A stretch of 64,000 nucleotides of DNA. Origin: a virus (taxonomy: Duplodnaviria > Heunggongvirae > Uroviricota > Caudoviricetes). Below the pieces are notes generated by a model that saw only the letters and a list, made by a program, of their open reading frames with translations, had not been told where the DNA came from and did no database searches. The translations under genes and the position numbers were made by a program. This document shows, one piece after another, positions 7,706-47,623 of this stretch (position 1 is its first letter; each line of letters starts with the position of its first letter). The stretch spans positions 9,241 to 73,240 of IMG/VR virus record IMGVR_UViG_2562617057_000010; one strand, written 5' to 3'.

Positions 7706-8434
7706 TTATTTCCTCTTAATGTCCTGCGGCTTTGTCTGCCAGCCATAATTGATGCCCTGCAACTGGCGGGACAGTATCCGTGCAAATTCCTCGTTACTGA
7801 CACCAAGGAACTGACGGGGTGGGATGGTTATCGTCCAGTAGCTTTTGGATGGTATGCCTTCCATGCTGCGGATAATCACGCCTGCCTGCCCTTTCGTGAG
7901 CGACGTCCGGATATCTGCCGTTGATGGTTTGCGGCGCGTCCCCCTTTTTTTGCCGCTCACCGTATAGCCCAGCTTGCGCAGCTTTATCGCCTGACGGCGG
8001 GAGCAGGGTTCCTTGCTGGCTTTTTCCATCGCGTCGGTTTTCAGCTGCGATGCGTTCACTGTGAACGTAACGCCATGGCTCTGGATATATCCCACTGCAC
8101 CCACGCTGATTTCCCTGTGGTTGTGGGGCTGGCGATAGCTCCTGCCTGCTGCGTATATACGCACCGATTTCGCTGATGGCATGTCGTGCACTTTCAGAAA
8201 TTTAGGGAGCCCCTTCAGCAGCGGTCTGTTGCCATAGCGGCGTTCTGCAAAACTGCTGCCATCAACATTCTTTTGTTCGCGAACATGGCGCTTTGCGGCC
8301 GGAATAACGCCGCGTTTTGCGATATGCTGCAGCAGACGCTGTTGTTTTGCCGGGGGGAGCTCACCGTTGGCCAGCATTGTCTGCAACTGCTTAAGCTGTG
8401 TCCGGTTAAGTTCGCCGTGCAGGGAGATGTCCAT
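7706..8434 (-). CDS. virion morphogenesis / tail completion protein (candidate)
   Basis: 242-aa ORF between head completion gene and sheath, basic C-terminal region; position only. Confidence 0.35.
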   Translation of the reverse strand: MDISLHGELNRTQLKQLQTMLANGELPPAKQQRLLQHIAKRGVIPAAKRHVREQKNVDGSSFAERRYGNRPLLKGLPKFLKVHDMPSAKSVRIYAAGRSYRQPHNHREISVGAVGYIQSHGVTFTVNASQLKTDAMEKASKEPCSRRQAIKLRKLGYTVSGKKRGTRRKPSTADIRTSLTKGQAGVIIRSMEGIPSKSYWTITIPPRQFLGVSNEEFARILSRQLQGINYGWQTKPQDIKRK

Positions 8435-8437
8435 TGT

Positions 8438-8917
8438 TTATTTCCCTGCCCTGATGGTGGATACAGTGATATTTTCTGCCACCCAGATCTCTGGCTTATC
8501 CAGCCGGTAACGGATGCCGCCCATCATGATAAAACCGGCCTCGTCCGGGATCAGAATGATGGGGTCAGCGAGCGGCATACTGACAGTCACTTCTGCAATG
8601 TTGTCGTCCGTGGGTTCGATGTTGACATCCGGCGCATCAAGCTCAAGCTGGCTGTAGTAGTCATTAGCCTGTTCGTCCCGCCAGACAAGTAGGGCGCATA
8701 ACAGCAAATCAGGGTCAACCTGACGCCATGGCCAGCGCTGCCAGTCGAACACGGCGTTGTACTGGCGAATACCCATTCTTATCTGTCCAAGCCCCATGTC
8801 TTTCTCTGCGGGCAAAAGACGAATATCACTCATCCACGAATCAAAGCCGGTATTGTCAAACACGGAAATGTCAAACACCTGCCGCAGATATGCATAAAGG
8901 CTGTCGAACTGGCTCAT
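8438..8917 (-). CDS. tail completion-like protein (candidate)
   Basis: 159-aa ORF overlapping gpL-like gene by 4 nt; position only. Confidence 0.3.
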   Translation of the reverse strand: MSQFDSLYAYLRQVFDISVFDNTGFDSWMSDIRLLPAEKDMGLGQIRMGIRQYNAVFDWQRWPWRQVDPDLLLCALLVWRDEQANDYYSQLELDAPDVNIEPTDDNIAEVTVSMPLADPIILIPDEAGFIMMGGIRYRLDKPEIWVAENITVSTIRAGK

Positions 8918-9459
8918 AAGATGTACACTCCCACACGGCCTGCGCCCTGGATAGCACGCAGCACAAAGGCCGCTTCAGCAAGCAGGGTTTCGCGGGTGTC
9001 ATTACTGTCGATATTGCTGTCGGCGTGGCGGGTGTTCACCGCCGTAAACTCACCGAGAAGATCGGCTTTGGCGCGGGCAAAGACCGCTTTTTTGTATTGT
9101 GCGCAAAGGGCGCTTTCTCCGTTAAGTTGCGGGCCTTCCACGTCCGCCGCCTGCGCTATTCCCTGCACTACGTAGCGGGATTTCACACCGGTCAGTGCGG
9201 TGTTCACCTCAAAGATGGCAGACAATAACGCCTGTTCTGCCAGTGATGCAGGGATATCCAGTGGGATAGTTCGGCTTTTGCGAAAATCAGCCATGGACAG
9301 ATCCGGCCAGAAGCCATCATTTTTAAGCATGCCTGTAGCAGTGTCTGTGTTCTGGTCTGTGCTGTAGCCTGGTTTCAGGTTCATGGCTGATTCTCTGTGT
9401 AGGTCAGGTCGGGCGAACGGTTCCGCGGCATGACTGACGCTTGTGCGTGTCATCCTCAC
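8914..9459 (-). CDS. head completion/stabilization protein, P2 gpL-like (candidate)
   Basis: 181-aa ORF (GTG at 9459 or ATG at 9453) at the position of P2 L; its partner gene M lies 36 kb away across the Mu-like insertion. Confidence 0.45.
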   Translation of the reverse strand: MRMTRTSVSHAAEPFARPDLHRESAMNLKPGYSTDQNTDTATGMLKNDGFWPDLSMADFRKSRTIPLDIPASLAEQALLSAIFEVNTALTGVKSRYVVQGIAQAADVEGPQLNGESALCAQYKKAVFARAKADLLGEFTAVNTRHADSNIDSNDTRETLLAEAAFVLRAIQGAGRVGVYIL

Positions 9460-9503
9460 CGTGCCCGCCTGAAGCCGTGGGGCTTTTATGACTAGGTAAT
9501 TTA

Positions 9504-9640
9504 TTCAAGATAACCGGGAAGAGATTAAAAAAGACGGGAATAGATTGGAATCAACAAGTTAGGAACTCAAGGTTTTCAAGATAAAGCGAGTCCAAAAATG
9601 TTAAACGGTTCGATATCAATAAAACATTCAAGATAACTCA
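9504..9640 (+). repeat. Mu-like left end: three transposase-binding-type repeats TTCAAGATAA (9504-9513, 9575-9584, 9627-9636)
   Basis: Same 10-mer three times within 135 bp; reverse complement TTATCTTGAA occurs three times at the other end of the element. Confidence 0.6.
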
Positions 9641-9760: not shown

Positions 9761-10381
9761 TTATGCGCTGGCTGCTTTCTGAGGTAGATTTAAGTGATCG
9801 CCCTTAGCTTCGGACAACGCGTAAATCTCTCTAACCTTTTCGTCTGGCAAATTACCAAGGCTTAACGCTATGGCTCTACGAACTCCAACTAGAGCGTGCA
9901 ACTCTTGGATGTGCTCATCCAGAAGAATGAGTAATTGCTCCGCTCCTTTTCTCCCAAGAACATCAGCTACTTGTTGTTTTTCTTGTGGTTTAAGAAATGA
10001 CAAGAACATTAGAATTTGAGCATCAACATTATCCGCATTCTCTTTTTTGGGTTCTTTGGAATCTTTTAGTTCAACATCACCCTCTCCCGTCATGAGCCAT
10101 TCCAAGGTAACATTTTCGCTTTCTGCTATCTTTTTTAACTGATGCGGGCGTGGTATCGGTGCGTAATCCCGCCTGTTGTAATAATTTTTTAAAGTGCCTT
10201 CATTGATCCCCCATGCCCGAGCAGCCGCATTTCTTGAAGGGTATCGTTCTACTAACCTAAAGATTCTTTCGATAATCGGTTCTTTTCCATCGGCAGGAAA
10301 AGAACCTTGGGGTGCTTTTCTCATTCTTGGTTCCTTTCTATCTAATTCATTGATAAATAATGAAATTAAAAAATAAACCAT
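9761..10381 (-). CDS. Mu c-type lysogeny repressor (HTH)
   Basis: Divergent from ner at the left end as in Mu; HTH-like segment RNAAARAWGINEGTLKNYY; true start may be internal Met at 10324. Confidence 0.7.
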   Translation of the reverse strand: MVYFLISLFINELDRKEPRMRKAPQGSFPADGKEPIIERIFRLVERYPSRNAAARAWGINEGTLKNYYNRRDYAPIPRPHQLKKIAESENVTLEWLMTGEGDVELKDSKEPKKENADNVDAQILMFLSFLKPQEKQQVADVLGRKGAEQLLILLDEHIQELHALVGVRRAIALSLGNLPDEKVREIYALSEAKGDHLNLPQKAASA

Positions 10382-10488: not shown

Positions 10489-10740
10489 ATGAGACAAAGA
10501 GAAGATCGCGACCGCGATTGGCCTTCGCTAAAGATTCAGCTGGCGCTCAAAGATAACGGGTGGTCTTCCTTCCGGGAGCTTTCACTCCATGCTGGTTATG
10601 CTCAGGATTCACTGAAAGCGGTGGTTCGTACACCGAACAAAAAATACGAACGCGTAATTTCTGACGCTATAGGTGTACCGCCAGAAATCATCTGGCCCAG
10701 CCGGTATCGTAACGATGGATTTATCAGGAAGGCGTCGTGA
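10489..10740 (+). CDS. ner: Ner-type DNA-binding regulator
   Basis: 83 aa, first gene of the early operon, Ner-like layout (…IQLALKDNGWSSFRELSLHAGY…PEIIWPSRY). Confidence 0.8.
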   Translation: MRQREDRDRDWPSLKIQLALKDNGWSSFRELSLHAGYAQDSLKAVVRTPNKKYERVISDAIGVPPEIIWPSRYRNDGFIRKAS

Positions 10741-10741
10741 T

Positions 10742-12847
10742 ATGCAGTCGTACGTTACCGTAAATGACCTGCTCGGCGTACCAGGAATGCCAGCCACCAC
10801 AAAAGGCATCCGACAGGCGTTACAGCGTTTTTCTCGTGATCTTGGTGACGTTAGTCGCCGTCGGGAAGGCACAAAAGCCATTGAGTACCACATTGATTGT
10901 CTGCCTGAAATAACACGAAAGGCACTGCGTGAACGCTATGTGGAACAGCTGGTGGCTACAGAGAACAATGTTTCTGAAGTGAAAGCTGTTACCAGAAAAA
11001 CACGCAATCCTGACGCTGTCCAGGCAATCGAAGCATATCGCGGTTCTCCACAACTGATGGAAGAACGCCTGAATGCGCTGACCGAAAACCAGCGCCGGGT
11101 ATCTGAAGCAAGGGCTGCACTGGTGGTGGAGGTGCTGAAGCTGGAAAGCGACGGTAATCTCGGGCGACTGAAAGCCATCAACTTTCTTGTTGAAAAAGCC
11201 CGTAAAGGTGAATTACCGGAGCGCCTGCAACAAGCCGCAGTTAATGCCAATGCAAAGCGTGGTGCCAATCGCACCATCAGTCGTGACCCGCTTTATCAGT
11301 GGGTGCTGAAATACAACCAGTCGCAGAACGCAGCCGAACGACTGCTGTTACTGGCACCAGGAAAGCGCGACGAAATAAAACCGGAAGAAATTAGCTGGCT
11401 ACCTGAATTTCTGGCGCAGTATCGCCAGGCGAATGGCAGACCTATGTCAGAAGCCTACGAGGATTTTGTCGCGGAATGGCAGCGTCGCCATGCTGACGAA
11501 CCATACATGCTGGAGGTGATGCCTTCTTACGATGTGGTGCGTTATGCCATGAAGAAATTGCCGGAAGTGGTGAAACAAAAAGGGCGTGTTACCGGCAGTG
11601 AATACCGTCAGCTTGAAGGATTCACCCGCCGCGACTGGACAGCTATGCCGGTGAATTATGTCTGGATTGGTGACGGTCACGGTATGAAGCTGAAATGTGC
11701 GCATCCGGTTCACGGGCGTCCATTTTCGCCGGAAGTTACGTTTGTCATTGATGGTGGAACCCGGTTTGTGGTTGGCTGGAGTCTTGATCTTGCTGAAAAC
11801 GTGTTTGCTGTTGCCGGTGCGATACAGCACGGTATTCGTAATCACGGGAAACCCTTCCTGTATTACTCGGATAATGGTTCCGGTGAAACGGCAGACATGC
11901 TGGATAAAGAGATCGTCGGGATTCTGCCCCGTCTGGGGATTAACCACCCCACCGGTATTGCCGGAAATCCGCAGGGGCGCGGCATTATTGAGCGCCTGAA
12001 CCGGACGCTGCCGATGCGTATAGCCAGGAGGTATCGCACCTATTTTGGCAGGGGTGCTGACCGGGAATCGTTGCGAGTACTTAATCGTGATCTGCGTTCA
12101 GCGTTTAATGCCCTGCAACAGGACAAGCCGCTGAATGCTCGCCAGAAATCTGCAATGCGCGAGCTGCCGTCCTGGTCAGAACTGATTGAGGCTATTCGCG
12201 AAGGCGTGGAATGGTACAACAACCGCCCGCATTCTGAACTGCCGATGAAACCAAACGGGAAGCATTGCAGCCCGGCTGAGTTCAGGAAAAAACGCCTGGC
12301 GGAAGAAAACACCGAAATTGAGTGGCTGAGCGATCTTGAGCTGCGCGACATGTTCCGTCCGATGGTGGAGCGTCCGGTAAGACGCTGTGAAATCAAATGG
12401 CTTGGGAATATTTATTACGCGCCGGAGCTGCGTGATGAACATGGTCGCAAAGTGCTTATCAGCTATGACATTCATGATGCAGAGCGAATTACAGTGCGCC
12501 GTAAGGATGGCAGTTTTATTTGTGAGGCGATATGGAACGGCAATAAACGCGCAGCCTTTCCTGTCAGTGCGGAATATCACAAACAGCAGCAGCGTATTAA
12601 AGGAATGCGCAAACGCGCTGAGGGAAAAATTCGTGATGCTGAAGATGAAGGTATTCAGGTTATTGAACAAAAAACGACAGAACCCTGGCTGGGGAATGTT
12701 TATCGCCCTGTGGGTAATGTGGTGACAGTTCAGCCTCAGGCTCCTGAGGAGACGCTTGATAATGCATACAACGCTGAGCGTGATGAATATCTGAATCATT
12801 CACTGGATATTCTGGAACAGAAAAGACGTAAAAAGCTGTTTAATTAA
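10742..12847 (+). CDS. Mu A-type DDE transposase
   Basis: About 700 aa; core WIGDGHGMKLK...FLYYSDNGSGE; C-terminus ERDEYLNHSLDILEQKRRKK closely resembles the Mu A C-terminal region; ATG at 10742 just after ner stop (track ORF starts at 10673). Confidence 0.9.
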   Translation: MQSYVTVNDLLGVPGMPATTKGIRQALQRFSRDLGDVSRRREGTKAIEYHIDCLPEITRKALRERYVEQLVATENNVSEVKAVTRKTRNPDAVQAIEAYRGSPQLMEERLNALTENQRRVSEARAALVVEVLKLESDGNLGRLKAINFLVEKARKGELPERLQQAAVNANAKRGANRTISRDPLYQWVLKYNQSQNAAERLLLLAPGKRDEIKPEEISWLPEFLAQYRQANGRPMSEAYEDFVAEWQRRHADEPYMLEVMPSYDVVRYAMKKLPEVVKQKGRVTGSEYRQLEGFTRRDWTAMPVNYVWIGDGHGMKLKCAHPVHGRPFSPEVTFVIDGGTRFVVGWSLDLAENVFAVAGAIQHGIRNHGKPFLYYSDNGSGETADMLDKEIVGILPRLGINHPTGIAGNPQGRGIIERLNRTLPMRIARRYRTYFGRGADRESLRVLNRDLRSAFNALQQDKPLNARQKSAMRELPSWSELIEAIREGVEWYNNRPHSELPMKPNGKHCSPAEFRKKRLAEENTEIEWLSDLELRDMFRPMVERPVRRCEIKWLGNIYYAPELRDEHGRKVLISYDIHDAERITVRRKDGSFICEAIWNGNKRAAFPVSAEYHKQQQRIKGMRKRAEGKIRDAEDEGIQVIEQKTTEPWLGNVYRPVGNVVTVQPQAPEETLDNAYNAERDEYLNHSLDILEQKRRKKLFN

Positions 12848-12881: not shown

Positions 12882-13835
12882 ATGAATATTTCTGATATTC
12901 GCGAAGAACTACGCACACTTGTAGAAAGTGAAAAAGTCACTTTTAAACAAATTGCTATTGAGAGTGATATTTCTACCGGGACTGTCAGTGCGTTTATTAA
13001 CGATAAATACAGCGGCGATAATGAACGTATCGCACAGGTACTGAAGTGCTGGCTTGACGATTATCTTGCTGCCGCAGACCTGCCGGAATTGCCTGGTTTT
13101 GTTCAAACGCAGACGGTAAAACAAATCTGGACAAGTATACGCTTTGCCAGCCTGACAGAGAGTATTGCTGTTATCTGCGGTAATCCTGGTGTGGGTAAAT
13201 CTGAAGCAGCCAAAGAGTATCGCCGTACCAATAATAACGTCTGGATGATCACCATGGCACCATCCCGTGTCAGTGTTCTGGAATGTCTTACGGAACTGGC
13301 GTTTGAGCTGGGAATGAACGGTATCCCACGCTGCAAGGGGCCGTTATCCCGTGAATTGCGCCGTCGTCTTGGGGGAACGCATGGGGTGGTTATTGTAGAT
13401 GAAGCAGACCATCTTGATATTGCGGCGCTGGAAGAACTTCGTTTGTTACAGGAATCAACCCGTATTGGCCTGGTATTGATGGGTAATCACCATCTTTACA
13501 CGAATATGACGGGGGGGAGCAAAACGGTTGAGTTTGCCCGTCTGTTTTCGCGCATAGCAAAACGCACGGCTATCAAAGCGCCCAAAGTTAACGATGTAAA
13601 AGCGATTGCGGAAGCCTGGGATGTTACCGCCAAAAAAGAGCAGGAATTCTTACTGGAGATTGCACAGAAACCAGGTGCAATTCGCACCATGACTTACACA
13701 TTACGTCTTGCTGCCATGAATGCTTACGGTAAAGGCAAACGTGTTAACGAAGATTACCTGCGTGAGGCTTACGAAGAACTGGATCAGGATGTGGATGTTC
13801 AGGAACAGTTGGGTATAAGGAGAGCGAAATCATGA
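12882..13835 (+). CDS. MuB-type transposition ATPase
   Basis: 317 aa, Walker A GNPGVGKS and Walker [11 protein letters not shown]; follows the transposase. Confidence 0.85.
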
Positions 13836-34307: not shown

Positions 34308-36473
34308 ATGGGCCTTGTCCCTCCCGCTGTCCCGCTTTTTCCGGCACTGCCAGCAGGCGAAAACCCTCTCTCAATATCACCGTTAAATCAGGAGATTTCT
34401 GTGACCGGGAAACGCTTAAAAGCGTCTGTCATTATTGATCTTAATGGCAATCTTTCCCGGCGTTCCCGCCAGTATTCGAACCAGATAAACGCCCTGTCCC
34501 GCAGCGGGCAGAGTTCCCTGCGTGCCCTGCGTATGGAGGTTGTGCGCGTTTCTGGTGCCATTGACAGAATGGGTTCTCTGTCAACCCGTACATTCCGAAT
34601 GCTGTCAGCCGGGGCGCTGGGTATCGCTGGCGTGGGTTACACCGCCAATAAACTGTTTATTGGTGCAGCCGCCCAGCGTGAGCAGCAGATTATCGCCATG
34701 AACTCGCTCTATCACGGCGATAAGGCCAGAGCACAGGCCATGATGGCGTGGGCGAAGCAGAACGCAAAAGAAACCACCTGGGGGCTGGGTGGTGTTCTGC
34801 AGGAGATCCGCACATCAACTGCGTTTGGCATGACTGATGCCCAGGTAAAACAGTTCATCACCATGCTACAGAACCAGGGCGCGATGCATGGCTGGGATTT
34901 ACCCACTGCACAGGGGGCTTCGTTACAGTTCAAACAGATGTTTGCCCGTCAGCAAATCACGGCGGCGGATGCCAACCTGCTGACCGGTTACGGTATCAAC
35001 GTTTACAAGGTGCTGGCAGATGCAACGGGTGAGGATGAGAAAAAAATCCGTAAGCTGGGTGAAAAAGGCAAACTGGGCCTGAAATCCATCCTGACGGTGT
35101 TCAGAATCTTACTGGAACAGTCAAAAGGCGCACAGGCGGCGGCCATGAACTCCTGGGACGGGATGATGGCCCAGATGGAGGGCAATCTGCTTGAGTTTCG
35201 TACAAAGGTGGCAAACAGCGGCCCCTTTGAAGAAATCAAGAACGAGATGCGCCGGGTACTTAACTGGCACGACATGGCGGATAAATCCGGGGAACTTGAC
35301 GCACTGGCAGAAAACATTGGTCAGAAATTTCTGACCACGTTCAGAACGGTAAAAATCGCGGCGCAGGAATTATGGCGCTGGCTGAAACCGGGTAAAGATG
35401 CGCTGGCATGGGTTGACCAGAATATTGCCAGCCTGAAAAAACTGGCTGCTGTTCTGGTGTCTGTCTGGCTTGCCAATAAAGCCCTGAGAGCAGGCTGGGC
35501 CGTGGCAAAACCTTCGTGGCAGGTTGCCAGTTACCCGTTTAAAACCGGGCGTCGTATGTGGCGCTGGATGCGGAACCGCAAACGTGGGCGGGCAGGTCTG
35601 CCGGTGCCGGATGCCATGACGTCTGAGACGCTGTTGCAGGGCACCGGCATTCAGCGTGTGTTTGTCATCAACTGGCCCCGTGGATTTGGTGGCTACGGGA
35701 GTGGCGGCGGTCGTCGCGGACGGAGCGGCGGAAGAATGGCCCCGCTGTTACCCCGCCAGCCGTTATTGCTGTCCGGGCCACAGCCGCTGGCATTACCTGC
35801 ACCACGCCCTGTACTGGCATTACCCCCACCCGGCGTACCGGTAACGGCACGGCCTGCACCATTACCTTTACCCGGTAAATCCGGTCTTCTGAGCAGGCTT
35901 GCAGGCAGTGCTGCCGGGCAACTGGTTACGGGAACGGTCGGAAAGCTGGCTGATGCCGGGCGTGCTGTTGGCGGGTGGTTTTCCGGTATCGGAAACAAAC
36001 TTGCAGGCAGTGCGATCGGTCGGGTTGTGACAAAAGGTGCCGGGGCGCTGGGCTGGATGGGGAAAGGTGCCGGTCGTGCGTTGTCATGTCTGGGTGGCCC
36101 GGTAATGGGGGCACTCCAGCTTGCCCCCGTCCTGATGGATGAGCAGGCGTCAACCCATGAAAAAGCAGGCGCAATTGGCAGTACAGCCGGTGCATGGCTC
36201 GGCGGTGCCGTTGGCAGCCTTGCCGGACCGCTGGGTACGGTTGCCGGTGCCACGCTGGGCAGTGTCGCCGGGGAGTATCTGGGCGGTTTTGTAACCGACC
36301 TGTATCAGAAATGGACGGCCCCGGATAAGGAACCGCAGGAACAAAAAGTGAATGCGGAAGCCTCGCTGCGCGTCGAACTTGGCGAGGGGTTACGCCTGAC
36401 CAGTTCCCGTGTCACCGAGGATGGTATGGGGCTGAATATTTACGCGGGCGATAACTACATTACGGGCTGGTAA
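34308..36473 (+). CDS. tail tape measure protein (Mu Y-like)
   Basis: About 700 aa, Gly/Ala/Pro-rich; alternative start GTG at 34401 with AGGAG upstream. Confidence 0.8.
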
Positions 36474-44328: not shown

Positions 44329-44841
44329 TTAAATACTCCCCGCGTTATACCACGTTCCATTAATGCAATACTGAACTGGCCTTGCCTGAGTTGTATCAAT
44401 TAGTGCATCTCTGTTTGAGTTAACGGAACCGGTAACAACATAACCTGACCTGTCAGACCAGCCGGGACCATTCCATGTCTGAACAGATGACAGACCACCA
44501 AGGCGAATACCTGTAATAAACCTTGAGTTACATTCTGCCTGCGTATATGCGCCAACATCTCTCGCTGATGGCTTGCGTGTTGTGGTGTAAAACTCTGACC
44601 AGCCAGCCTCAAATCCATAACCATCACGCGCTGAACGATAAAAAATACCGCCGTTCTTATAATTCACACGGAACTGTACAGCAGGGCAACTCCCCGTATT
44701 CATATTGAAGTGGAGTATTAATGCTGTTGCGCCTTTGATATCTGCATCATAAACACCGCTAATCAATGCAATATAGAAAACGACGATCGAATCAATTGAA
44801 TCGATCGGTAATACAGATCGATTATGTCCTGATAACCACAC
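44329..44841 (-). other. S' variable tail-fibre cassette remnant, 5'-truncated
   Basis: C-terminal fibre-tip homology to Sv; in-frame stop immediately upstream of the GTG at 44841; the first ~20 codons coincide with the mom GATC control region. Confidence 0.6.
44785..44819 (+). promoter_or_regulatory. three clustered GATC sites upstream of com-mom (Dam-dependent mom control region)
   Basis: GATC at 44785, 44803 and 44816, 75-110 bp upstream of com ATG, matching the known Mu mom regulation layout. Confidence 0.6.
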
Positions 44842-45748: not shown

Positions 45749-45772
45749 AACAGCGGTTAATGCCGCTGTTTT
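45749..45772 (+). terminator. rho-independent terminator after mom
   Basis: AACAGCGG-TTAAT-GCCGCTGTT hairpin followed by TTTT, overlapping the innermost right-end repeat. Confidence 0.6.
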
Positions 45773-45846
45773 ATCTTGAATAACTTCCATATGCGCGCTT
45801 CTGGCTTATCTTGAATGATTTCCATATCTATCTTGAATAATTTTCC
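45771..45846 (+). repeat. Mu-like right end: three inverted transposase-binding-type repeats TTATCTTGAA (45771, 45806, 45829)
   Basis: Reverse complements of the left-end 10-mer, compactly spaced; outermost copy with flank (GGAAAATTATTCAAGATA) mirrors the left terminus (GGTAATTTATTCAAGATA). Confidence 0.6.
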
Positions 45847-45860
45847 GCGCTTTACTTTCG

Positions 45861-46562
45861 TTATACCGCCCGTAATGCGCGCAGACGGGCGGCTATTTTG
45901 TTTCGTATGGCGCGAACACCTGCTTTGGGAGTGGTGCTGTGCGCACGGGCCATCCACTCATCGGCGCTACGTAGTTTCGCCACGTCGTAAATGGCGGCCG
46001 GGGTTGTCGGTTTGCCATCGCTGTCCCGTAACAGGTTAAGACCGGCGAATTTGTACCATCTGGCAACTATCTCTTCGTGCAGTGTCCAGTCTTTTTCGAT
46101 ATGGCTCATCACGCGGCTGAAATAGGGCTCGACGGAAAGGCCTTTATCAAACTGAATCTGTGCCCACTGCATGACCTCATCGGCGACGAACGTTGGCAAA
46201 TCACGGTCAAAGCGTGGTGGCATGGGTTGATTCTGTCCGATGGCGATATCGGCCCATTCCAGAGCTTTGTCCATTTCGCCGGTATCAAACAGCCAGACGA
46301 TGCACCAGGTAAACGGGATGTATTTGTACTCCTCGCCGCTTTGCAGCCACGCCTCAATCGTCGGCATCCAGCGCGGCAGCAGGGATTCACGCTTGAATGC
46401 CACACGATCGGCGTTGGTGGCGCAACTGCTCACAGCCCTGCAGTCGATTTCCAGTTGCGCCAGTTGCAGATGAAGACTGTCGCGTACGGTCAGTGCCTCG
46501 CGGTGTTCCATTGCCTGCTGCGCGGCCAGTCTGGCTCTGAACTTTTGCGCCGGAGTCTGCAT
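45861..46562 (-). CDS. terminase endonuclease (small) subunit, P2 gpM-like
   Basis: 233-aa ORF following N-like capsid gene in P2 O-N-M order. Confidence 0.7.
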   Translation of the reverse strand: MQTPAQKFRARLAAQQAMEHREALTVRDSLHLQLAQLEIDCRAVSSCATNADRVAFKRESLLPRWMPTIEAWLQSGEEYKYIPFTWCIVWLFDTGEMDKALEWADIAIGQNQPMPPRFDRDLPTFVADEVMQWAQIQFDKGLSVEPYFSRVMSHIEKDWTLHEEIVARWYKFAGLNLLRDSDGKPTTPAAIYDVAKLRSADEWMARAHSTTPKAGVRAIRNKIAARLRALRAV

Positions 46563-46573
46563 ACGTCAGTCCG

Positions 46574-47623
46574 TTACGCTGCCTGGTTTGGTTTCGCATG
46601 TTCAGGTGATGGCAGTCCTGCCAGTTCAATGTTGTCAAACGAACCGTAGAGTGCGTCATATTCCACGGCGCAACCCTGCATACGCAGCCAGTTGTTTTCG
46701 AAGCGTTTGCGGTCATCAATCCATTCGGCACGGCGTTGCTGTGTTCCGCGCTGGAAGTACATATGCAGATTCCAGAGCGTGGTGACAACCAGGCGGTTAT
46801 CCGGCATAAATGGCGGACTGAATGACTTGCGTCCGGCGATCTCACGGTTGATAAGCTGGGCGGCGACTTTTTCTGTCGGGCGGTCGATGCGGTTCAGCAT
46901 ACTGACCGTATCTGCTGCGATAATGTTCTGTGATACCAGTACAACCAGATCCGGGTGTTGACGGAATTCGGGTGGAATGCAGGTATTGATTACATCGGCG
47001 GCAATAGCATCAACAGACGTAAAATCAGCCCCGGTTCCTGTACGGTTCAATACGACCTTGTCAGTAATGATCTGTTTTGGTGTGCGCGCTTTAACAATCT
47101 GATGCCATCCCGGGTGAATATCTTCCCCGTTCGGGCAGGTATCAGGATTGGTTTCATCTGCGGCATGTGTACCGTTCAGTGCCACGCGTAACAGGTCGTT
47201 GGTGACTGACTTGTAAAAGAACGCCTGAAGACGGTTATAGAACTCGTTTTCGGTGCCTGCGTTTGCCCAGTTGGTCAGGGTGGTGTAGTCCAGGAATGAA
47301 CCGGAATCCACTTCGTAAAGCTTGTACTCGTTGCCTTCACTCCCCAGCGCTTTATTGAAGCGTCCGTCTTTCTTGCGCCCGGTATACAACCCCGGAATTC
47401 CGGTACTGACTACCTGGCCGACAAGCTGTTCGACCAGCATGACGGTGATCTTGCCCATGAACGGGTCGGCATTCTCAATCAGGGCATCGCGTAGCAGGGT
47501 TTCACGCGGTGGGCTGATGGTAAAAAACTGTTGTGCTGTAAATACGCCATTGGCTTTTGCCATCGAAATGGCGTAATTACGCAAAAACTTTTGCGCCTGT
47601 GGTGATAACATCTGTGCGGCCAT
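46574..47623 (-). CDS. major capsid protein, P2 gpN-like
   Basis: 349 aa (P2 N ~357), between O-like and M-like genes. Confidence 0.8.
   Translation of the reverse strand: MAAQMLSPQAQKFLRNYAISMAKANGVFTAQQFFTISPPRETLLRDALIENADPFMGKITVMLVEQLVGQVVSTGIPGLYTGRKKDGRFNKALGSEGNEYKLYEVDSGSFLDYTTLTNWANAGTENEFYNRLQAFFYKSVTNDLLRVALNGTHAADETNPDTCPNGEDIHPGWHQIVKARTPKQIITDKVVLNRTGTGADFTSVDAIAADVINTCIPPEFRQHPDLVVLVSQNIIAADTVSMLNRIDRPTEKVAAQLINREIAGRKSFSPPFMPDNRLVVTTLWNLHMYFQRGTQQRRAEWIDDRKRFENNWLRMQGCAVEYDALYGSFDNIELAGLPSPEHAKPNQAA

Follow-up and report, generated by a model that had tools for sequence, protein, structure and literature searches.

Gene content and mosaic structure of the prophage

The window (the whole 64,000-nt stretch of DNA analyzed here) contains a complete Mu-family transposable prophage of 36,368 bp (9487-45854, plus strand), the termini of which were set from the limits of its homology to related elements at other loci. 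Its left end carries a c-like repressor gene with a helix-turn-helix (9761-10381, minus strand), which occupies the position of Mu c and gives a weak Phage_CI_repr match, followed on the plus strand by genes for a Ner-like small DNA-binding protein (10489-10740; Pfam HTH_35, E = 1e-13), a 699-aa transposase (10748-12847; weak HTH_Tnp_Mu_1, rve-like DDE core and Mu-transpos_C) and a MuB-like AAA+ transposition ATPase (12882-13835; Pfam Phage-MuB_C, E = 2e-27, and AAA_22). The transposase and B reading frames are both intact. The Pfam assignments hence place a DDE transposase and a MuB-like ATPase beside repressor and ner at the left end, as is typical of the Mu family, and the element also has the size (36-40 kb) and the habit of inserting at many loci with a short duplication (17 insertions, see below) that define this family.

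Between 12754 and 45780 the window aligns with Mu in collinear blocks of 79-98% identity. Mu covers 81% of the first 23.5 kb at 95.8% identity and the late genes are approximately 96% Mu-identical, a degree of nucleotide identity over most of the genome that is characteristic of the genus Muvirus. The com-mom region is 94% identical to that of Mu, in agreement with the original prediction, which had described Com, Mom and the transposase C-terminus as nearly Mu-identical. For the transposase, this description is accurate for the last ~30 codons, which lie in Mu DNA (from 12754), but not for the remainder of the protein, which shares 27% identity with MuA. No DNA homology to Mu is seen in the first 3.3 kb of the element or in its final 74 bp, and the left end had no match when searched as DNA in a set of 50,697 phage records. 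Mu homology begins only at 12754 and ends at 45780, the end sites do not follow the Mu att consensus, and Mu DNA has thus been replaced at both extremities of the element, with joints at these two positions. Such a double replacement is what should be expected if ends and enzyme must match. A separate deletion is seen at window positions 44761-44771, where Mu 34500-35644, comprising the gin invertase gene and the 5' part of S', is missing; as a result, the G segment is locked in a single orientation.

The sequences flanking the element (7706-9459 and 45861-47623) indicate that it sits inside a P2-family prophage, in the gap between a small-terminase gene (gpM-like, 45861-46562) and a head-completion gene (gpL-like, 8914-9396), and a P2-type capsid gene and gpR adjoin these insertion-flanking genes. 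A megablast search of the right flank against the phage collection gave no match.

Termini and target-site duplication

Homology to prophages at other loci begins at window position 9487 (TATGACTAGG...), and at the opposite end the hexamer GCTTTA (45849-45854) is identical in all related elements inserted elsewhere, with unrelated host DNA beyond it. Positions 9487 and 45854 are assigned as the termini because they are the points where homology with independent insertions starts and stops. The tips of the element (TATGAC... and ...GCGCTTTA) thus read 5'-TA...TA-3', as opposed to the 5'-TG...CA-3' of Mu-type elements, which was recovered in a Mu-type prophage of E. coli W used as a control. The original prediction had proposed a left terminus at 9487 beginning with TA, which coincides with the start of homology across independent insertions, and had pointed to a TG at 9489-9490, which is indeed present. 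The right terminus that it implied (45848) is wrong, since every related right end retains GCTTTA and the tip falls at 45854. Within a single transposase lineage, the left tip is either TG or TA depending on the element (TGTAACCAGG vs. TATAACCAGG; the survey of this polymorphism included L030, L037, L040, L044, L047, L087 and others). The right tip is TA in all the right ends retrieved or paired, and a 4-bp duplication accompanies either left tip. In view of the left-tip variation among relatives, the second base of the tip therefore appears to tolerate change.

The four bases preceding the left tip (CTTT, 9483-9486) are repeated directly after the right tip (45855-45858). Perfect 4-bp direct repeats, and never 5-bp ones, flank all seven insertions comprising that of the window (CTTT) and six in E. 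coli (GAAA, ATTC, TTCA, TAAG, TATA and CAGG), and repeats of the same length were found in relatives carrying a different end motif (CGAA, CGTG) and in IMG/VR ends paired on the same contig (GATA, ATCA, GTGC, AGGA) or within the same genome (GTCG, AACA, TGCC, AGTC). The duplication is therefore of 4 bp in 17 of 17 independent insertions at different loci, and not of the 5 bp of Mu-type elements, exemplified by the repeat GCCGC that flanks a genuine Mu-type prophage in E. coli W. The length of the duplication can also be read from the interrupted genes. When the fliH gene of E. coli STEC388 is rebuilt with a single CAGG, 400 of 400 positions are identical, with no gaps, to the intact fliH of other strains, and in two of the E. 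coli insertions long reading frames reappear once the element and 4 bp are taken out; frame restoration was judged in the E. coli insertions, as that of the window is intergenic, within the P2-family prophage, and uninformative in this respect. Alternative placements of the tips yielding a 5-bp or a 6-bp duplication were rejected, given that they leave no identical flanks and conflict with the 400/400 match in fliH. It had been proposed earlier that GCTTT, at 9482-9486 and 45849-45853, was a 5-bp target duplication. The pentamer does occur at both positions, but its right copy is conserved element sequence and the true duplication is the 4-bp CTTT, which refutes that reading; the two GCTTT pentamers match by chance, the left one being host DNA and the right one part of the conserved element.

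Distribution and rearrangement of related elements

Of the 5,426 complete E. coli genomes searched, six have this left end, and it is these six that also have the right end and the transposase N-terminus, at different loci. A probe spanning the transposase yields DNA matches in about 290 of these 5,426 genomes, a figure that may include matches to Mu-type B genes, and a scan of species-representative genomes gave 3 loci only. Relatives of the transposase core with 48-49% identity are found in Pasteurellaceae-type loci (L071-L075 and L085), including Mannheimia haemolytica; these are possibly FluMu-like and could serve to date the origin of the 4-bp stagger.

Two of the insertions appear to have been rearranged. 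In STEC388 (L008, L009) the two halves of fliH, with the left and right ends of the element, lie 0.9 Mb apart on opposite strands and have CAGG in common, and in E. coli 06-00048 (L006, L007) the right end is found upstream of the left one, at a distance of 100 kb, and the two have TATA in common. In both cases, prophage copies seem to have undergone large rearrangements with each other once inserted. In addition, the 'circular' genome of Yersinia phage vB_YpM_5 (MT374853; L010, 4655-4732) is permuted, and its right and left tips are separated by some 80 nt that are not phage DNA; this stretch probably represents flanking host sequence packaged in virions and brought together when the genome was assembled.

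Organization of the end repeats

The left end contains three exact plus-strand copies of TTCAAGATAA, at 9504-9513, 9575-9584 and 9627-9636, exactly where the original prediction had located three repeats. Its view that these repeats occupy L1-L3-like positions and differ in sequence from the Mu att sites is upheld by our analysis, and three further copies, which it had not noticed, are found on the minus strand at the right end (45771-45780, 45806-45815 and 45828-45837, the last one being TTCAAGATAG). The left tip and L1 (TATGACTAGGTAATTTA followed by TTCAAGATAA) span 9487-9513 on the plus strand and the right tip and R1 (TAAAGCGCGGAAAATTA followed by TTCAAGATAG, from the tip inward) span 45828-45854 on the minus strand. 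Counted inward, the first motif thus starts at base 18 from the tip in both ends. L2 and L3 start at bases 89 and 141 from the left tip, and R2 and R3 at bases 40 and 75 from the right tip, with R2 located 22 bp from R1, a spacing equal to the length of a Mu site, and R3 placed at the point where Mu homology ends. R1, R2 and R3 share a single orientation.

The exact 9-mer TTCAAGATA occurs 6 times in the 64-kb window against 0.39 occurrences expected from base composition, and all 6 copies are confined to the two ends of the element, with 3 copies per end in inverted sets 36 kb apart. The repeat is hence real and non-random. All elements of the TTCAAGATA class have the motif at the same offsets from the tip (18/89/141 in the left end, with 140 in two cases, and 18/40/75 in the right end), and in five left ends with diverged spacers and flanks the three motifs, L2 among them, stand out as invariant islands. 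Both ends therefore carry three inverted, putatively transposase-binding repeats at conserved offsets. Read as its reverse complement, TTATCTTGAA, the motif is similar to the center of Mu sites such as TTCACTTGAA.

The transposase

The 699-aa transposase shows 27% identity to MuA over the catalytic core and C-terminal parts, and no detectable similarity to MuA in its end-binding region. Only the last ~30 codons form a Mu-like portion, beyond the recombination joint at 12754. Pfam recovers Mu-transpos_C, a weak HTH_Tnp_Mu_1 over residues 8-127 and rve below threshold, whereas the DDE_2 core and HTH_Tnp_Mu_2 (I-gamma) models, both strong in MuA itself, give no match in the window protein. As judged from these comparisons, the transposase is not a MuA orthologue. 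In a search of its sequence against PDB chains, only retroviral integrase cores were matched, with MuA appearing at E > 0.02, and a comparison of folds was accordingly used for the N-terminus. The predicted structure of residues 1-301 displays I-alpha-, I-beta- and I-gamma-like folds, that is, the MuA-like succession of a winged-helix I-alpha and two helix-turn-helix subdomains, in which the order of the domains and the location of the helices were used to place residues 120-195 in the I-beta-like subdomain. On this structural prediction, the window transposase is a protein with the domain plan of MuA but not its sequence.

Covariation of end motif and transposase in two classes of elements

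Transposases with a core 85-99% identical to that of the window are encoded by Yersinia phage vB_YpM_5 and by numerous E. coli prophages, but the ends of these elements carry a different repeat, TTTGATAC. Their tips (TATGAAGAGGTAAATCA... and ...TTTTGCGCGCTTTA) match the tip sequences of the window class, although some members have a left tip TG, and their repeats lie at 18/113-122/164-165 in the left end and at 18/40/75 in the right end. The tip-proximal 17 bp are common to both motif classes, but the left end differs from the right end. The vB_YpM_5 transposase is nearly identical to that of the window from about residue 195 on and diverged over the first ~190 residues, with 39% identity over residues 120-195. 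In an alignment of 12 representative transposase N-termini, 26 of the 27 class-discriminating positions fall within residues 125-193.

Covariation between motif and protein was assessed on the two motif classes and on three natural recombinants (L017, L057 and L081). The transposase of L081 is window-like over residues 1-75 (85%) and 76-119 (89%) and vB_YpM_5-like over residues 120-195 (99%), and its ends carry TTTGATAC. The converse arrangement is seen in L017, which is vB_YpM_5-like over residues 1-75 (77%), window-like over residues 120-195 (97%) and has TTCAAGATA ends; L057 repeats the pattern of L017 in a third background. In these sequences, the motif class tracks residues 120-195 of the transposase, and neither residues 1-75 nor the repressor. 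Elements with TTCAAGATA ends encode three unrelated repressors (26-36% identity), and one of these shares 83% identity with the repressor encoded by a TTTGATAC phage. The segment that follows the motif class corresponds in the window to codons 120-195 (11105-11332, plus strand), the putative specificity determinant of the system. The original proposal of a mosaic phage of the Mu family that recognizes its ends with a specificity of its own thus finds support in the covariation of the motif with a transposase subdomain, which makes for a stronger case than the original prediction could present.

Origin and function of the end repeats

Taken together, these results indicate that the TTCAAGATA(A/G) repeats are very probably the end-binding sites L1-L3 and R1-R3 of a phage with Mu late genes and a transposition module derived from a different Mu-family lineage. 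The foreign module would comprise both ends, the repressor, ner and the transposase except for its last ~30 codons, and would have been grafted, with its swappable I-beta-like domain and matching end motif, onto a Mu backbone. The transposase would bind three sites per end, its I-beta-like helix-turn-helix subdomain (residues ~120-195) reading the 9-bp motif and its conserved I-gamma-like subdomain, with the catalytic core, handling the conserved tip-proximal bases. Cleavage at the 3'-terminal TA would then be followed by joining of the ends to the target with a 4-bp stagger. The direct contact between motif and I-beta-like subdomain, the assignment of each half-site to a subdomain and the chemistry of cleavage are here inferred from the features described above.

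Other functions may be contemplated for the repeats. The Mu repressor and the I-alpha domain of MuA have common DNA targets near the left end, and the left repeats of the window element lie just upstream of its repressor gene, so that they might be conceived as repressor operators or as sites for the enhancer-binding, I-alpha-like domain instead of end-recognition sites. The right end, however, also has three such repeats, at a great distance from any repressor gene, and elements with the same motif have unrelated repressors, including the one shared in large part with a TTTGATAC element, while transposase residues 1-75 reassort freely relative to motif class in L081, L017 and L057; we thus regard this reading as extremely improbable. 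To an involvement of host architectural proteins of the IHF, HU or Fis type, with the transposase reading only the tip region, we assign a very low probability. It would accord with the conservation of the tip-proximal 17 bp between motif classes, and with the participation of HU and IHF in Mu transposition, but the two motif classes coexist in one host species, E. coli (where the TTTGATAC class is represented by L086 and L087), and a host factor does not account for the existence of two mutually exclusive motifs, each segregating with its own segment of the transposase. The motif also appears unlike the IHF consensus.

The loss of gin and part of S' from the window copy does reveal some decay, and could be taken to mean that the repeats are chance or decayed sequence of a dead prophage devoid of present function. 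We lend next to no credence to this idea in light of the six exact 9-mers found only at the ends, when 0.39 are expected, of the invariance of the motif across diverged elements, of the intact duplications in seventeen independent insertions and of the intact transposase and B frames. The sister module is, moreover, present in plaque-forming Yersinia phages (PMC10434027). Recognition of the repeats by the transposase as end-binding sites thus stands as the preferred interpretation.

Implications for Mu-like transposition

Mu is the reference system for replicative transposition, and its TG/CA tips and 5-bp duplication serve as diagnostic marks in the detection of transposable prophages. The presence of a TA-tipped module with a 4-bp duplication on a genome with Mu virion genes overturns the treatment of these marks as Mu-type constants, and boundary rules based on TG/CA and 5 bp will misplace elements of the window class, as happened in the earlier call of its right boundary. 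More generally, we incline, if only slightly, to the view that enterobacterial 'Mu-like' phages include a common, undescribed Mu-like transposition system, with TA ends, a 4-bp stagger, a transposase that is not a MuA orthologue and a specificity cassette of ~75 residues swapped between at least two orthogonal motif classes, which is able to replace the Mu module on a Mu genome. If true, this would provide orthogonal tools for Mu-type transposition that already exist in nature, and a natural setting in which to study the determinants of stagger length. The two motif classes and their matching protein segments amount to a natural specificity swap, potentially usable for orthogonal transposition in vitro, and a comparison of the window transposase core with MuA could reveal what fixes the length of the stagger. 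No report of a 4-bp duplication or of TA ends in enterobacterial Mu-like phages was found in the full-text literature searched, which covers few of the subscription journals, and the PluMu paper presents no analysis of ends.

Comparison with known transposable phages

Among the known systems closest to the window element are Yersinia phages vB_YpM_5 and vB_YpM_6 (MT374853 and MT374854) and E. coli prophages such as those of RM8082 and CI5, which belong to the same transposase lineage (core 85-99%). Members of this group share with it the tips, a first site at base 18, the right-end layout (18/40/75) and the 4-bp duplication, but differ in the TTTGATAC motif, in residues 120-195 (~39% identity) and in the TG left tip of some elements. 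The published description of these Yersinia Mu-like phages does not discuss their ends or transposase type (PMC10434027).

D108 offers a precedent for a Mu backbone in which an early-region module has been exchanged through recombination. The differences between this phage and Mu concern immunity and the I-alpha region, and its ends and transposase core remain of the Mu type, whereas the window element has exchanged its end sites, most of its transposase and its right end.

TA at both ends and a duplication length other than 5 bp are also features of the transposable prophages of Leptospira and of phage B3. The Leptospira prophages have TA-TA ends with 6-bp duplications, and encode a transposase of the B3/Tn552 family without an enhancer-binding domain (PMC8705779). 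They thus differ from the window element in duplication length and transposase type, and their hosts and genomes are unrelated. The same 2021 survey, which has a Mu specialist among its co-authors, presents TG-CA as a conserved feature of every Mu and B3-like phage or prophage reported until then (PMC8705779).

With Mu itself, the window element shares the presence of three sites at each end, the separation of L1 from L2 and L3, a 22-bp distance between R1 and R2, the left-end gene order repressor, ner, A, B and a transposase N-terminus with predicted I-alpha-, I-beta- and I-gamma-like folds. The Mu sites L1-L3 and R1-R3 were reportedly defined by Craigie, Mizuuchi and Mizuuchi in 1984; when the Mu ends were scanned with a 23-mer consensus, only L2, L3 and R3 were recovered. 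The structure of the Mu transpososome is 4FCY. The L1-L2 spacer still aligns with that of Mu, in that window positions 9514-9560 (CCGGGAAGAGATT...GACGGGAATAGATTGG) resemble Mu (L003) 31-75 (CCGGGAGGACATTGG...CGGGATCTGATGGG) in spite of the different binding motif, and this likeness points to a shared ancestry of the ends of both elements. Against this common background, the motif is TTCAAGATA and not the Mu consensus, the tips are TA...TA and not TG...CA, the duplication is of 4 bp instead of the 5 bp of a true Mu-type prophage, and the transposase is only 27% identical to MuA. The right sites lie in one orientation, as opposed to the inverted R3 of Mu, and the assembly of the transpososome may therefore differ from that of Mu. 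The system described here thus works like that of Mu att and MuA, yet departs from it in tips, duplication length, MuA orthology and att consensus.
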